From: an uncultured bacterium
GTDB lineage: Bacteria > Cyanobacteriota > Cyanobacteriia > Cyanobacteriales > Microcoleaceae
DNA length: 17,081 nucleotides
NCBI GenBank assembly: GCA_964609515.1
Contig: CAZSTZ010000002.1
Span: 37,339 to 54,419, forward strand
Reading direction: 5' to 3'
In this document: positions 4,314-17,081 of the stretch, piece after piece
Position numbering within the stretch: position 1 is the first letter of the stretch
Layout of the letters: each line of letters begins with the position of its first letter
Translations under genes and position numbers: made by a program
Notes under the pieces: generated by a model
What the model saw: the letters and a program-made list of their open reading frames with translations, nothing else
The model's database searches: none
What the model was told of the DNA's origin: nothing

Positions 4314-4346
4314 ACCGAATAAGTTATTAACTAAGGAGAAAAACCA

Positions 4347-4679
4347 ATGAATCTAGGAATAATAGCAGCGATCGCCTACGGTATATTAGCAGTAGGCGGC
4401 GGCATTATGGGCTACGTCAAAGCCAAAAGCAAAATCTCATTATTTGCGGGAGTTAGCTGCGGCATTTTGTTAATTATTGCCGGCATTCTGCCGTTGATGG
4501 GAATGAATTGGGGATTGATATTAGCGTCGGTAATAGCAACATTTTTGGTAATTACATTTATTTCCCGACTGATAAAAACCCGTAAATTAATGCCATCAGC
4601 TTTAATGATTGGTGCCGGGCTTGTTTCCGTGGGAATTATGATTTATCAAATCGTTGTTTCCGCTCAATTGGAATTATAA
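4347..4679 (+). CDS. TMEM14-family (UPF0136) small membrane protein, 4 TM helices
   Basis: 110 aa. GxxxGGxMGYxKxxSxxSLxAG signature (GGGIMGYVKAKSKISLFAG) is typical of TMEM14/DUF423-like proteins. Four hydrophobic segments. RBS AAGGAG lies 7 nt upstream of the ATG. Confidence 0.7.
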   Translation: MNLGIIAAIAYGILAVGGGIMGYVKAKSKISLFAGVSCGILLIIAGILPLMGMNWGLILASVIATFLVITFISRLIKTRKLMPSALMIGAGLVSVGIMIYQIVVSAQLEL

Positions 4680-4691
4680 CCGTGGAATTAA

Positions 4692-4729
4692 GAAACCAGG
4701 TAATTTCGGCAAAACCTGGTTTCTGGGCT
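4692..4729. terminator. Palindromic hairpin repeat GAAACCAGGT-(12 nt loop)-ACCTGGTTTC followed by TGGGCT, immediately 3' of the TMEM14 gene
   Basis: Perfect 10-bp inverted repeat. The loop is the reverse complement of the loop in the copy at 1207-1240, so it is the same element in the opposite orientation. Confidence 0.4.
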
Positions 4730-4772
4730 GCGGTTAGAGTTAATCCATTGGAGTTTACAGAGGTAGAATGAT

Positions 4773-5912
4773 ATGTCTAAAACAATTGCTATTCCCAAAG
4801 AAACCAGAATTGAAGAAACGCGAGTCGCCATTACACCAGATGGCGCTAAAAAATTAAGAGCATTGGGTTACAAGGTTAAAGTCCAAAAAAATGCAGGGAT
4901 AAAAGCTGGATTTTCTAACCCAGAATATCTGTTCAGTAACGCGGAAATTATCGAAGAAGTTCCATCTTTGTTGGCGGCAGCAAATATTGTGTTACCCTTG
5001 AAAAGACCGGCGGCAGAAATAGAAAAACAAACCATCGCTACTCTGGTTCCAGAAGCATTAATTGTAGGATTTTTAGATCCTTATTTTCAAAAGGGAAAAC
5101 ATCTACATTTTTATCAAAAACAAAAAGTAACTGCTTTTGCTTTTGAACTTTTACCAAACCTTCCCGAAACCCAGTTATTCGATCCTATGGCTCAGATGAG
5201 TCAAATTACGGGGGAGGTCGTTCTTGATGATTACATCGAGAACTATAACGAAAATCTGGAAGGCAAGAAGATTTTAATAATTGGCTTGGGAAATGTGGGT
5301 TTATCTTGTGCCAAGTATGCCTGGGAAAAAAAAGCTAAAGTTACAACAATTACTCGTAGCGATCGCTATCGAAATCTAGTCGCAAAACAAGGGGGGCGTT
5401 TCCTAAAAATTGAAGGAAATGCTGAATCGAAGAAACGAGAATTTGTGGAAAAGATACTGCTAACAAATTTTTTCGATCTAGTTGTTTGCAGTGCTAGGAT
5501 ACGCTGCCAGCTCGCACCCTTGTTAATTTCTAAATCGGCATTATTAAAATTACAAAAAAAAGTAATAATTTACGATTTAGCAGCAAGTTTGGGAGGAAAT
5601 TGCGAAGCCAGTCAGTACGGTAAAAATACTTCTTGCGGGGGAGCGGATGTGCGAAGCAAAACGGGATATCCTACCTCAAGACCGAAAGAGGCTTCCGAAC
5701 GCTATAGCAGTTGCGTAATAGAATTTTTGAAACATTTATCGCGAGATTCTGACGATTCGATAACGCAGTTGTGTTTGGAAAGCTGCGCGGTATGCAATGG
5801 CATGGTTAACCCAATTTTGGGGTTAAATGAAAATTACCAAATTAACGATGGAATTAAGTTTCGCGATCGCCTCCTTGAATGGCACTCAAACTACCTCAAA
5901 ACATGGCAATAA
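4773..5912 (+). CDS. Alanine dehydrogenase / pyridine nucleotide transhydrogenase (PntA dI-like) family protein, orphan
   Basis: 379 aa. N-terminus IAIPKETRIEETRVAITPDGAKKLRALGYKV, a GxGxxG Rossmann motif IIGLGNVG and DLAASLGGNCE (compare PntA DLAAQNGGNCE) place it in the AlaDH/PNT family. No pntAA/pntB follows. The C-terminal 90 aa are unusually Cys-rich. Confidence 0.65.
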   Translation: MSKTIAIPKETRIEETRVAITPDGAKKLRALGYKVKVQKNAGIKAGFSNPEYLFSNAEIIEEVPSLLAAANIVLPLKRPAAEIEKQTIATLVPEALIVGFLDPYFQKGKHLHFYQKQKVTAFAFELLPNLPETQLFDPMAQMSQITGEVVLDDYIENYNENLEGKKILIIGLGNVGLSCAKYAWEKKAKVTTITRSDRYRNLVAKQGGRFLKIEGNAESKKREFVEKILLTNFFDLVVCSARIRCQLAPLLISKSALLKLQKKVIIYDLAASLGGNCEASQYGKNTSCGGADVRSKTGYPTSRPKEASERYSSCVIEFLKHLSRDSDDSITQLCLESCAVCNGMVNPILGLNENYQINDGIKFRDRLLEWHSNYLKTWQ

Positions 5913-6945: not shown

Positions 6946-6980
6946 AACCCGGTTTTTTTGAAAAACCGGGTTTCTGGGCT
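6946..6980. repeat. Palindromic hairpin repeat CCCGGTTTTTTT-G-AAAAACCGGG followed by TTTCTGGGCT (same family as 4250-4313)
   Basis: Inverted repeat and shared TTTCTGGGCT tail read directly from the sequence. Confidence 0.5.
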
Positions 6981-7000
6981 AAAGACGTAGGGAAAAAACC

Positions 7001-7621
7001 ATGACTCAAGCAATAGAAAAACCCCAACTAATGACTCTAGACGAATTTCTGGACTGGTATCCAGACGACGGGAAAATTTACGAACTACATAAAGGAGTTA
7101 TTTTTGAAATGGAACCAACTGGAACTCACCAACAAGTTATTGGTTTTCTTGTAACTAAATTTGCCGTGCAACTTGAAAATCTCCAACTTGCATACTTGCT
7201 AGTAACTCAATGCATCATCAAATCAATTAGCACGGACAATTCTGGATTCAATCCCGACGTAACAATTCTCGATAAAAACGTTTTAGAAAACGAGCCGATG
7301 TGGAAAAAACGTTCCACAATTACCAACGGAGAAACTGTCAAGTTAGCCCTTGAAGTTGTCAGCACTAATTGGCAGCATGATTATTTAATGAAACTGTTTG
7401 AATATGAAAATCTAGGAATTTATGAATATTGGATAGTTGACTATTTAGGATTAGGTGGAAGGCGATTTATTGGCAGTCCCAAACAGCCGACTATTTTTGT
7501 TTATGTAATGGTGGATGGCGAATATGAAGTAAAAACGTTTCGAGGTAGCGACAGAATCGAATCATCAATTTTTCCCGAATTAAATTTAACGGCGGAACAA
7601 ATATTTGCAGCAGGTAGTTAA
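7001..7621 (+). CDS. Uma2-family (DUF820) restriction-endonuclease-fold protein, copy A
   Basis: 206 aa. Hallmarks of cyanobacterial Uma2/DUF820 proteins: N-terminal MTLDEFLDWYPDDG...YELHKGVI, and the PD-(D/E)xK-like core NPDVTILDK...LALEVVS. Nearly identical over its 5' about 140 bp and its 3' about 415 bp to copy B at 8798-9418. Confidence 0.85.
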   Translation: MTQAIEKPQLMTLDEFLDWYPDDGKIYELHKGVIFEMEPTGTHQQVIGFLVTKFAVQLENLQLAYLLVTQCIIKSISTDNSGFNPDVTILDKNVLENEPMWKKRSTITNGETVKLALEVVSTNWQHDYLMKLFEYENLGIYEYWIVDYLGLGGRRFIGSPKQPTIFVYVMVDGEYEVKTFRGSDRIESSIFPELNLTAEQIFAAGS

Positions 7622-7675: not shown

Positions 7676-8122
7676 ATGAGTCAGTCGCAGTTATTACTGC
7701 CACCCTGGAGAAGTCCAAATTTAGGAATGGGTCGGATATTTAGCCATTTTACTAACTCTGAGGGAGCTACTGGAATTACAGGAATTATTGGGGATAGTCT
7801 CGATATAAATCAGCAGGCGATCGCCACTAAACTGCAATTCGGACAAGGTTCAAATCCCTTTTATGCTAACGCTTCAGGAGATATATTTGTAACAGAACTT
7901 GACGTGGAAGCAACTGTAGGTGATTTGAATTTAATTGGTGTCTTTGGCGACAAGCAAATGTTTCTAATTCAATTCTCAGAAGAAACTGCTTTAGTCTTAA
8001 ATAAGATTAGAGTCAGACCGGTGAAAATCTCTTATAATGTATTGACATCGGGCAGCAGTATTTACACTATCCCTGGTGGCACTACGCTCGTAGGTAAATT
8101 TCTCGTAACGAGGGTTAGATAA
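7676..8122 (+). CDS. Hypothetical protein (148 aa, Gly/Ser/Thr-rich, predicted beta-rich), first gene of a two-gene cassette
   Basis: ORF of 148 aa with no family I can recognise. Its stop overlaps the start of the next gene (TAATG at 8119-8124). Sits between the two Uma2 copies. Confidence 0.5.
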   Translation: MSQSQLLLPPWRSPNLGMGRIFSHFTNSEGATGITGIIGDSLDINQQAIATKLQFGQGSNPFYANASGDIFVTELDVEATVGDLNLIGVFGDKQMFLIQFSEETALVLNKIRVRPVKISYNVLTSGSSIYTIPGGTTLVGKFLVTRVR

Positions 8123-8739
8123 TGAATAAATTAGACCTTTATCAAACTGTCGAAAATTTAGAGTCTGGCGAACTAGAAAAACAAGTTTGTGCGCTAGAAG
8201 GCGCAGTAGAAATAGTTAACTTACTCGCCTTTAAAACTGTTGAAACATTCGAGAAAGCTTCCCACAAATTTCCCATCGCCGATCGCCTTTATCGCTTTGG
8301 TTCGATTATGGTACCCCACCTAGAACAATTGCTCGAAAAAACAGAAGATTTAGAAACCCAAATTCTAGCAGCAGTCGTACTGTTAAGATTGGGTTCCCAG
8401 GTAGGAGTTGATGTTTTATTAAATGCCATCTCCCGCGACAAACAATATCCCTGTTTGGCAGCAAGCTGTTTGGCAGCAGCGGGCATTAAAATAGCAATTA
8501 ATCCTATAAGCGATCGCCTCAGAAACGCCAGTTTTGAAGAGATAGATTTAATCGTCGGTTTGCTAACTGCTTTGGAAGAATTAAACGGCGAAATACCTCC
8601 CGATATCTATCGACTTTTTACAGTTGCCGATGCCCCGTGGCAAATTAAAGCTATAATTCAAGATAGGGAATTAAGCGGCGATCGAAAGTTAGTTTTAGAC
8701 AGCTTTACGTCTAACTATGTTAGGGAGATTAACTATTAA
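8122..8739 (+). CDS. Hypothetical alpha-helical protein with HEAT/ARM-like repeats (205 aa), second gene of the cassette
   Basis: Repeated helical hairpin pattern (AAVVLLRLGSQVGVDVLLNAISRD...CLAASCLAAAGIKIAINPISDRL) resembles HEAT-like repeats. Translationally coupled to the upstream ORF. Confidence 0.5.
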   Translation: MNKLDLYQTVENLESGELEKQVCALEGAVEIVNLLAFKTVETFEKASHKFPIADRLYRFGSIMVPHLEQLLEKTEDLETQILAAVVLLRLGSQVGVDVLLNAISRDKQYPCLAASCLAAAGIKIAINPISDRLRNASFEEIDLIVGLLTALEELNGEIPPDIYRLFTVADAPWQIKAIIQDRELSGDRKLVLDSFTSNYVREINY

Positions 8740-15105: not shown

Positions 15106-15175
15106 AGTTGTTGGGAATTGCTAATTGCTAATTGCTAATTGCTAATTGTTAATTGCTAATTGTTAATTGTTAATT
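15106..15175. repeat. Heptamer tandem array (AATTGCT/AATTGTT) x10 (STRR-like), 23 bp upstream of the kinase start codon
   Basis: aattgct x4, aattgtt, aattgct, aattgtt x3, aattagc read directly. Same family as the repeats at 2287-2331. Confidence 0.85.
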
Positions 15176-15519
15176 GTTAATTAGCCATTACCTATCCAAC
15201 GGCTTTTCAGTAATCAAACGAGCCCCGCCCTCTCGGGTAAAATAACTCCACGCCCACTGAATCATCACTATCAATTTATTATCAAATTCGATGACGTAGT
15301 AGATGTGGACAAATACCCACGAAAAAAAAGAATGGAAGAATGGGAGCCGCGACGTTTTAACTCGCGGAGGGAATTATACTCAGGCGGTTTCAACCGCCGT
15401 GGTTTAAAAGGGTGGGAGGATTTTTCCTCCCTAATCTTCTACCGCCTTGGCCTTACTAACGACGGTGACATATTGCATTTGTCTTTCGTCCAGGCAATTA
15501 TGAACTCATGCTTTTAGGC

Positions 15520-15790
15520 TGTACGCATAAAAGTTAAACTCTCATTTCTGAGGTAATCTTCGCCTTGGCAAAGTTATCGGTCGGTACTTTCTTAGTTGCA
15601 CTGTTTTACCCCTCGTAGAACTGTTTAACAACTAAGTTTTAGCAGCCCAGAACTGGCGAGGCATTCTAAGGTAAGAGCTTCAACGCTTACCGATAACGTA
15701 GTCCTCTAGGGACTTAGCTCTTCTTCAGCATATCTAAATTAACGAGGCACGAAGCCCCGCTCTTCAGAGCGGGGTGCTGACGGCTTGGTT
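15520..15790. other. Highly structured non-coding segment of about 270 bp (multiple nested stems) that replaces the 3' end of the ndh gene. Candidate small RNA or decayed MITE/insertion remnant.
   Basis: No credible ORF on either strand. Stems: gttatcggt (15575-15583) with accgataac (15681-15689); cttagttg with caactaag; ggtaagagc with gcttacc; ccccgctc-ttca-gagcgggg (15755-15774). The ndh reading frame ends inside the last hairpin. Confidence 0.3.
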
Positions 15791-16892
15791 GCGACCGATT
15801 ACGGCTAAACTTCCATAGTCAATATACTTGAAAGGCGGCGAAGTTTGATTTTTAAGTCGGTTTTTGATGACCTTGGCCCCATAAGACCCCTCCTCCATGG
15901 CTACGGGGGCCACTCCTGGTAGGGGCTTTTCTTCTTGGTGGGGATAATTTGCTAAATCTCGCAAAAATCTTCGCGTGGCCCGGTACGCTCAAGTCCTTTT
16001 CTACCACAACTCGTCCGGCCCGGTCGAGGCTGGCCCCCGTCTTACGAGCGATCGCCTCTCCCATCCCCGATGCCTTCACCCCGGCGGCCCACAATACCGT
16101 CTCAGCCTCTATTTCCTCGGTTTCGTCCCCACTCCGGACTGTCACTTTACCATCTTCTATATTTGTCACCAGACTTTTAGTCCGTATCGTTACTCCCAAA
16201 TTTGTCAAAGCTGCTGCTGCTTTTGCCGATAATTCTGGTGGGAAAGGTGGCAAAATTCTGTCCACTCCTTCTATTAAAAAAACGCGGGTCTCGCTAGTAT
16301 CAAAATTCCTAAAATCTGGCTTAAATTTCTTATAAGCTAACTCTGCTAAAGCCCCCGCTAATTCCACTCCCGTCGGTCCGCCGCCCACGATAACAAATGT
16401 TAGCAAAGCCCGTCTTTTCTGGGGGTCGCTTTCTTTCTCCGCTTCTTCAAAAGCTCCTAATATTCGCCTCCGCATTTCCAAAGCATCTTCTACTGTTTTT
16501 AACGGCGGCGCTTTTTCTTGCCATTCGTCGCGACCGAAGTAAAAATCTTTGACTCCCGTAGCTACAATTAAACTGTCGTAAGTTAGGTCGCGATCGCGCC
16601 AAATTAACTTATTTTCTTCGGGCTGAATATCTATCGCTTCCCCTAACAAAACTGTGGTATTTTTATTACCTTTTAAAACTCCCCGCAGGGGCGAAGCAAT
16701 ATCTCCTGGAGACAAACTACCCGTCGTCACTTGGTAGAGCAAAGGTTGAAATAAATGGAAGTTTCTTTTATCAATTAAAGTAACTTTTACATCGGCTTTT
16801 CCTAATTCTTTCGCCGCATATAGTCCGCCAAATCCGCCGCCGACTATTACTACATGATGGGGTGTTTTTTTAGGGTTTTCTTCGGTTTTCAT
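15764..16892 (-). pseudogene. ndh: Type II NADH dehydrogenase (NDH-2, FAD-dependent pyridine nucleotide-disulfide oxidoreductase), apparently disrupted. A frameshift near 15965-15980 (about 5 bp missing at ...IFA|IGDLANYP...) splits it into ORFs 15852-16892 and 15764-15964. The C-terminal membrane-anchor region after GRNQAV is absent.
   Basis: N-terminus HHVVIVGGGFGGLYAAKEL (first FAD-binding GxGxxG) and a second GxGxxG motif VIVGGGPTGVELAGALAE. The expected IFAIGDLANYP becomes IFARFSKLS..., with DLANYPHQ...LPGVAPVAMEEGSYGAKVI...PFKYIDYGSLAVIGRNQAV continuing in the -1 frame. A stop follows directly after GRNQAVSTPL. Confidence 0.55.
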
Positions 16893-16923
16893 AAGAGTTT
16901 TTTTATGTTGTAGTTAATCTTTT

Positions 16924-17081
16924 TAGTTAATCTTTGTAGGTTGTGCGGACCTCCGTGGAAGCCAACAAAATATGTTTAGTTAATCTTTGTAGGTTGTGCG
17001 GACCTCCGTGGAAGCCAACAAAATATGTTTAGTTAATCTTTGTAGGTTGTGCGGACCTCCGTGGAACCCAACAAAATACGT
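16924..17081. repeat. 53-bp tandem repeat (TAGTTAATCTTTGTAGGTTGTGCGGACCTCCGTGGAAGCCAACAAAATATGTT), at least 3 copies, running off the window end. A 12-bp partial unit lies at 16909-16920. Located upstream of the ndh start.
   Basis: Copies begin at 16924, 16977 and 17030, with period exactly 53. Copies 1 and 2 are identical. Copy 3 has 2 substitutions. Confidence 0.85.

Follow-up and report, generated by a model that had tools for sequence, protein, structure and literature searches.

A probable NDH-2 pseudogene interrupted by a HEARO-bearing mini-element in an uncultured cyanobacterium of the Microcoleaceae

IscB nucleases use the HEARO RNA as their omega RNA; the right end of an IS200/IS605-type transposon forms its boundary, and the guide lies just outside the element (Meers et al., bioRxiv 10.1101/2023.03.14.532601). 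The same preprint describes that an omega RNA needs transcription entering from flanking DNA, that iscB elements show an orientation bias towards that of the upstream gene, and that PATEs often encode omega RNAs requiring a nuclease in trans (10.1101/2023.03.14.532601). Here we describe a 17,081-nucleotide stretch from an uncultured cyanobacterium of the family Microcoleaceae (GenBank assembly GCA_964609515.1, contig CAZSTZ010000002.1, positions 37,339 to 54,419; hereafter the window), whose minus strand carries a gene of type II NADH dehydrogenase (NDH-2). Very probably, this gene was recently inactivated by a deletion-insertion in the motif binding flavin adenine dinucleotide (FAD), by a 461-bp IS200/IS605-type guide-RNA element inserted in the NDH2_C domain (CAAGCC^GTGG) and by a deletion of about 50 nt.

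Compared with described HEARO/OMEGA systems, the inserted element agrees in matching the HEARO model over its full length with a score above the gathering threshold, in its covarying helices, in a 5' end that coincides with the element boundary and in the orientation of the upstream gene. In place of an IscB open reading frame (ORF), however, it carries ~230 nt of non-coding tail, conserved and structured, together with the opposite transposon end. The PATEs of Geobacillus stearothermophilus related to ISGst1 and ISGst5, as described in 2023 by Meers et al., are likewise short and ORF-less, with subterminal hairpins, copies at unrelated loci and a short conserved motif beside one end without inverted repeats. 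In that description, however, PATE omega RNAs are linked to TnpB, whereas the element of the window has an IscB-type (HEARO) RNA at its right end; it also differs from them in being conserved at 79-85% in several cyanobacterial genomes. Full-length iscB insertion sequences (ISC / IS200/IS605), represented here by a locus of Microseira sp. BLCC-F43, share the homologous HEARO scaffold and a Shine-Dalgarno (SD) sequence and start codon directly after it, but IscB is encoded at the Microseira locus and missing from the element of the window, whose tail is unrelated to that locus. The event is of a known kind. Only the insertion, which can be dated, and this cyanobacterial family of IscB-type omega-RNA mini-elements are new.

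The interrupted NDH-2 gene and its insert

The NDH-2 frame starts at 16892 and, in the ORF list and in the alignment to orthologs, follows them through ...VPGHAKIF, as the initial annotation of this DNA had it. Both Rossmann motifs, GGGFGG and GGGPTG, are kept in this first fragment in agreement with the GxGxxG pattern of NDH-2, and Pfam reports Pyr_redox_2 (1e-47) and Pyr_redox (6.5e-17). The continuation DLANYPHQ...GRNQA was found, again as annotated, in another frame by translation and alignment, and this frame closes at a TGA (15766-15764) in the loop of a hairpin (CCCCGCTC-TGAAG-AGCGGGG), which agrees with the stop at 15764 reported earlier. Used as a joined protein query, the three fragments of the gene retrieved intact orthologs of 432-433 residues, with 93% identity to P0001 (432 residues), 91% to P0002 and 85% to P0003. 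P0001 carries Pyr_redox_2 and NDH2_C and matches the solved structure PDB 9mqy at 2e-116; PDB 9mqy, 4nwz, 5na1 and yeast Ndi1 4g9k are the close known NDH-2 structures. In comparison with functional NDH-2, such as the cyanobacterial Ndb proteins, the copy in the window is frameshifted, interrupted and partly deleted.

The 3' truncation with loss of the membrane anchor, also claimed initially, did not hold. Homology to the nearest ortholog, on a Joint Genome Institute (JGI) metagenome contig (L001), runs from 16951 down to 15780, breaks, resumes at 15319 and extends on into the kinase gene, with synteny and 91% DNA identity on each side of the insert; the gene order of this contig, NDH-2, Ser/Thr kinase with WD40 repeats and major-vault-protein homolog, is that of the window. 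The third fragment encodes WVFVHIYYVIEFDNKLIVMIQWAWSYFTREGGARLITEKPLDR* (15317-15188), its DNA being 91% identical to the ortholog, and ends with the native NDH-2 stop, intact at 15190-15188. By these alignments, most of the C-terminal domain is present 460 bp downstream and the gene is interrupted, so that truncation is the wrong description; the insert, and with it the mobile element as the cause, had been overlooked initially. Natural ends after GRNQAV were not found among the close orthologs, all of which run ~60 residues further. Between the two blocks of homology, the window has 460 bp where the L001 contig has 49 bp (GTGGTTAAC...GATAGCC, encoding VNLNFWRFSGFLAWIA); about 16-17 codons are therefore deleted, corresponding to 49-51 nt, the range coming from the assignment of 2-3 nt shared at the junctions. 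The deletion lies at the 5' edge of the third fragment, beside the element and between two TGG triplets. As the insertion site falls within NDH2_C (residues 362-416 of P0001), the membrane-anchoring domain is split and lacks those codons. Aligned in this way, the gene carries three independent lesions, namely the net -5 deletion-insertion, the 461-bp insertion and the ~50-nt deletion.

The HEARO match in the insert, at 119.9 bits (gathering score 83; E = 1e-25), covered model positions 1-211 of 211, with model position 1 at the insertion junction within 2 nt. Double compensatory changes were found in 20 of the 50 consensus pairs given by RNAalifold for eight HEARO copies. The stop-bearing hairpin is the first helix of HEARO and can be read as the right-end transposon hairpin; the two hairpins near the opposite terminus are read as the candidate left-end hairpins. 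Beyond the Rfam model, the tail contains a vestigial SD sequence and ATG (15543-15526), followed by a stop after four codons in four of five copies, and an invariant block, GCCAAGGCGGTAGAAGA (15451-15435), which pairs back onto the ATG region; 18 of 61 pairs in tail and hairpins are compensated. Judged by this conservation of structure, the tail probably extends the omega RNA at its 3' end. The terminator-like hairpin that follows was not called by a simple terminator scan, and promoter and terminator scans of the locus gave no strong calls. After HEARO no iscB was found, only 232 ORF-less bp before NDH-2 resumes, and Pfam detected no RRXRR, HNH or transposase domains among the ORFs of the window. 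The element is sense-oriented relative to the NDH-2 gene.

Features of the window, with positions counted from its first letter
Feature	Position	Strand	Basis
NDH-2 pseudogene fragment 1 (codons 1-309, M...VPGHAKI)	15966..16892	-	ORF list, Pfam
Frameshifting deletion-insertion, orthologs ATTTTCGTTATCGGAGA, window ATTTTTGCGAGA, net -5 nt	~15956..15969	-	blastn, MAFFT against L001, L002, L004
NDH-2 pseudogene fragment 2 (59 codons, DLANYPHQ...GRNQA, shifted frame)	15782..15958	-	translation, alignment
NDH-2 16 nt CGGTCGCAACCAAGCC directly 5' of omega-RNA scaffold (candidate guide)	15782..15797	-	position relative to HEARO start
461-bp non-autonomous IS200/IS605-type element (PATE-like), omega RNA, without ORF	15321..15781	-	absent at L001 and L004 sites; recurs elsewhere
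HEARO RNA (Rfam RF02033), IscB omega-RNA scaffold, 229 nt	15553..15781	-	cmscan
Subterminal hairpin CACCCCGCTC-TGAAG-AGCGGGGC	15754..15776	-	sequence, cmscan structure line
Conserved structured tail beyond Rfam model	15435..15552	-	alignments, RNAalifold
Terminator-like hairpin GGGAGG-AAAAAT-CCTCCC, then ACCCTTTT	15406..15431	-	conserved across copies in alignment
Two subterminal hairpins, GGCGGTT-GAAA-CCGCC and CCGCGA-GTTAAAAC-GTCGCGG	15347..15398	-	compensatory changes in L008, L009, L016
GTG abutting element end (putative target motif)	15318..15320	-	after all 5 copies and at empty site CAAGCC^GTGGTT of L001
NDH-2 pseudogene fragment 3 (last 43 codons, WVFVHIYY...ITEKPLDR)	15188..15317	-	translation, DNA alignment
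53-bp unit TTTAGTTAATCTTTGTAGGTTGTGCGGACCTCCGTGGAAGCCAACAAAATATG, at least 3 tandem copies	16922..17081 (past window end)		
Heptamer AATTGCT, 9.6 copies	15116..15182		
Ser/Thr kinase with WD40 repeats, 845 residues	12546..15083	-	
Major-vault-protein homolog (Vault repeats, MVP_shoulder), 921 residues	9699..12464	-	
Uma2-family protein (putative restriction endonuclease), 206 residues	8798..9418	+	
ORF without Pfam match	8122..8739		
ORF without Pfam match	7676..8122		
Uma2-family protein (putative restriction endonuclease), 206 residues	7001..7621	+	

The same unit recurs elsewhere. A degenerate two-block HEARO pattern led to ten cyanobacterial loci, and an exact 23-mer of the HEARO core had no match in the genome-contig collection, from which it follows that the genome behind the window is no GTDB representative. 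At three of the ten loci, the ~460-bp unit aligns end to end and its flanks are unrelated each time: in GCA_964619285.1 (L013, 85% identity to the insert), in Roseofilum halophilum BLCC-M91 (L009, 81%) and in a metagenome-assembled genome (MAG) from a tar biofilm (L008, 79%). Scanning metagenomes with two invariant tail blocks yielded one more copy only, on a metagenome contig (L016) which holds the 3' part of the unit. The HEARO core had no more than distant matches (72-74%) in the plasmid collection, in Nostoc and Scytonema, and inside the window no further copies or fragments of the element were found. All copies begin with 5' GT(C/T)AGCAC and end with 3' ...CCCATCYTTTTTTC. No inverted repeats are seen between the termini, GTCAGCAC... 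and ...TTTTTTC, and subterminal hairpins stand at each end, as in the structure of PATEs; also in common with a discrete PATE unit, the ends are fixed and the flanks unrelated in the window and in the three complete copies. Among seven related complete HEARO loci, six lack iscB, the exception being the Microseira locus (L007), which alone of the HEARO loci found carries an IscB ORF (RRXRR and HNH domains). Because the same ~460-bp unit with the same ends lies at unrelated sites in three other genomes, we conclude from the alignments that the ORF-less form predates the insertion in the window and is itself the mobile unit.

This recurrence also weighs against the alternative that a full-length iscB insertion sequence entered at this site and later lost its ORF by internal deletion, leaving the insert as its remnant. 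HEARO normally precedes iscB and the vestigial SD sequence and ATG would fit such an origin, but a unit of the same size, architecture and ends in three other genomes, and in part on the L016 contig, would not, and the tail is dissimilar to both the iscB ORF and the end of the Microseira element. We therefore regard an in-situ remnant as improbable. A related candidate, that the tail itself is a degraded iscB, was rejected: since similarity to the Microseira locus is absent beyond the SD region and the frames stop at codon 5 in four of five copies, the tail is not recognisable as iscB.

In the Microseira locus itself, the IscB ORF (4332-5885) is split into a piece of 385 residues carrying RRXRR and HNH and a C-terminal piece of 105 residues, and this split suggests that its iscB is also frameshifted. 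A CRISPR-DR28 repeat match lies ~2.9 kb from that IscB locus.

Frameshift and state of the gene

In DNA alignments to three orthologs, the ~5-nt loss described in the initial annotation was recovered as a net loss of 5 nt within a more complex change, in which 8 nt are replaced by 3 nt (ATTTT[CGTTATCG]GAGA in the three orthologs, ATTTT[TGC]GAGA in the window). Substitutions are clustered just upstream of it (CATTCTAAT to CACGCGAAG). At the protein level, the window shows HAKIFA-RDLANY in the place of H(S/P)N(I/L)FVIGDLA(S/N)Y, which all orthologs have, so the deletion-insertion removes V-I-G of the FAD-binding F-V-I-G-D motif and the intact GD motif of an NDH-2 is absent. For this reason, as judged by its sequence, the locus is an NDH-2 by descent and now a pseudogene.

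A sequencing or assembly indel, in a gene that is otherwise a normal short NDH-2 ending after GRNQAV, had been considered initially as an alternative and would be compatible with one assembly taken by itself. The exact frameshifted product of 346 residues was, however, called on 17 public contigs, and the eight that were fetched (L017-L024) share 99.9-100% identity with the window over the frameshift site. These eight come from the JGI metagenomes 3300040790, 3300040792 and 3300040795 and from the Logan assemblies SRR7428110, 114, 116, 117 and 118, the five Sequence Read Archive runs among them having been separately assembled. Because of this agreement, an assembly indel is very unlikely as the cause of the frameshift. 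Moreover, the lesion is a complex deletion-insertion with neighbouring substitutions and not a homopolymer slip, and the ~60-residue continuation of the close orthologs, which a normally short gene would lack, is found downstream in the window.

Continued function of the locus, whether by recoding where the frame shifts or in the form of a split protein, has a very low probability. Its low ratio of non-synonymous to synonymous substitution rates (dN/dS), as in intact orthologs, and the otherwise undamaged fragments would agree with function, but a recent inactivation explains the low ratio equally well. Even a +1 slip would leave V-I-G of the FAD-binding motif missing; the frame enters the element and stops there, the deleted NDH2_C codons are not regained, and the third fragment has neither a start codon nor a ribosome-binding site. 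It can be practically dismissed that the hairpin and the sequence downstream are an ordinary terminator or intergenic spacer with a coincidental HEARO match: a stop codon in a GC-rich hairpin and simple scans without a strong promoter or terminator call might suggest so, but the match covers the full model at E = 1e-25, the orthologs have coding sequence here and not spacer, and the NDH-2 C-terminus resumes past the insert.

Inactivation of the NDH-2 gene by the three lesions is the preferred reading, and its age can be gauged from the coding sequence. Between the window and the L001 ortholog dN/dS is 0.13, compared with 0.12 for the intact pair L001 and L004. Lineage-specific changes amount to 23 synonymous and 14 non-synonymous in the window and to 27 and 14 in L001, and in this comparison with L001 and L004 relaxed constraint was not detectable on the window lineage. 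Since the ratio on this lineage matches that of an intact ortholog lineage, the inactivation is, to judge from these substitutions, recent relative to a dS of 0.25. Of the "decaying pseudogene" proposed initially, the pseudogene is borne out by three lesions, while "decaying" makes it older than the unrelaxed dN/dS indicates. The site should be annotated as one NDH-2 pseudogene in three fragments with a HEARO-bearing mini-transposon; neither truncation nor sequencing error is the right label. With an empty site in a relative at 91% DNA identity and an unrelaxed dN/dS, it offers a clean datable case.

Proposed mobility and guide activity

The element could have arrived by single-strand peel-and-paste transposition, with a TnpA encoded elsewhere acting in trans, and would have inserted next to a YCAC/GTGR motif. 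The GTG abutting the element end is a putative target motif (reverse complement YCAC) and a putative target-adjacent motif (TAM). At the opposite end, the last 16 nt of NDH-2 sequence before the scaffold lie in the guide position of IscB omega RNAs and, by analogy to these, may serve as a guide. As the element is sense-oriented in the gene, a read-through transcript from the NDH-2 promoter would be an omega RNA with the 5' guide CGGUCGCAACCAAGCC (15797-15782). If IscB were provided in trans, it would cut the allele that lacks the element, taking GTGG as the TAM, and such cutting would favour retention of the element. An IscB-type omega-RNA element sense-oriented in a transcribed gene is the arrangement that has been proposed as needed for guide-RNA production, and an ORF-less unit recurring in several cyanobacterial genomes provides a small delimited family for testing omega RNAs in trans.

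A more far-reaching idea, which we consider possible but rather doubtful, is that the ORF-less HEARO unit represents a selected, long-lived family of guide-RNA-only elements, in which the structured RNA has replaced iscB and both TnpA and IscB act in trans. The 79-85% conservation of the unit, the compensatory changes in scaffold and tail and the related HEARO loci without iscB (six of seven) speak for it. If it were true, every insertion into a transcribed gene would set a resident IscB on alleles that lack the element, which would be cut and thereby converted.

Several observations count against our interpretation of the insertion. Neither tnpA nor iscB lies within the 17-kb window, so trans-mobilisation and guide activity are proposals only. 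The GTG motif was derived from just the five copies, all of which have it beside the same end, and from the empty site of L001. As the original junction has been obscured by the neighbouring ~50-nt deletion and the other copies come without empty sites, the absence of a target-site duplication is not cleanly readable. With its 119.9 bits, the HEARO of the window scores below those of Roseofilum halophilum (148.6) and the tar-biofilm MAG (146.5) and has several non-canonical pairs, for which reason this copy of the element may be decaying. Finally, breaks of Logan contigs inside the element at 15430, 15598, 15600 and 15635 suggest more element copies in the same genome, an estimate taken from short-read contig breaks only.

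A second interruption and the neighbourhood

The related MAG GCA_964619285.1 has an ortholog of the same gene (P0005, 324 residues, on contig L002) that breaks off directly behind GACTTAGCAAGTTAC, where an unrelated sequence with a hairpin begins. In detail, at 6954-7005 of this contig, and on L003 (SRR7048222), NDH-2 is broken after ...GCAAGTTAC by GAGAGAAAGACGAGAGTTTGAAAGCCGTGTCTTTTTAAAGCACGGATGAAA, and the contig ends 51 nt later; these 51 nt had no match among the loci compared. TTAC is the target motif of IS608, and the break is probably an independent mobile-element insertion at a TTAC site. Since the ortholog of the related MAG is also interrupted, after TTAC and by a different sequence, the Ndb paralog is suggested to be dispensable in the clade. 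The same MAG has the HEARO mini-element elsewhere, at the locus given above. The L001 contig bears, at 16389-17722 and thus ~7 kb downstream of NDH-2, pieces of a TnpB gene in two separate ORFs (HTH_OrfB_IS605 and Cas12f1-like_TNB), which shows that the lineage has IS200/IS605-type elements.

Just upstream of the NDH-2 start, the 53-bp tandem repeat has units of 99% identity; L001 aligns to part of one unit only, L017 and L018 show more copies beyond the window, and short Logan contigs begin at 16951-16960. The heptamer repeat lies between the NDH-2 stop and the start of the kinase gene and is found in L001 too, with another copy number and variant units. The kinase adjoins the vault homolog, and the synteny of the two extends to L001 and L004; vault-protein homologs are uncommon in bacteria. 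Further along, the two Uma2-family paralogs, 1.2 kb apart, show a protein identity of 88% and a DNA identity of 91%, and two ORFs without a Pfam match lie between them.

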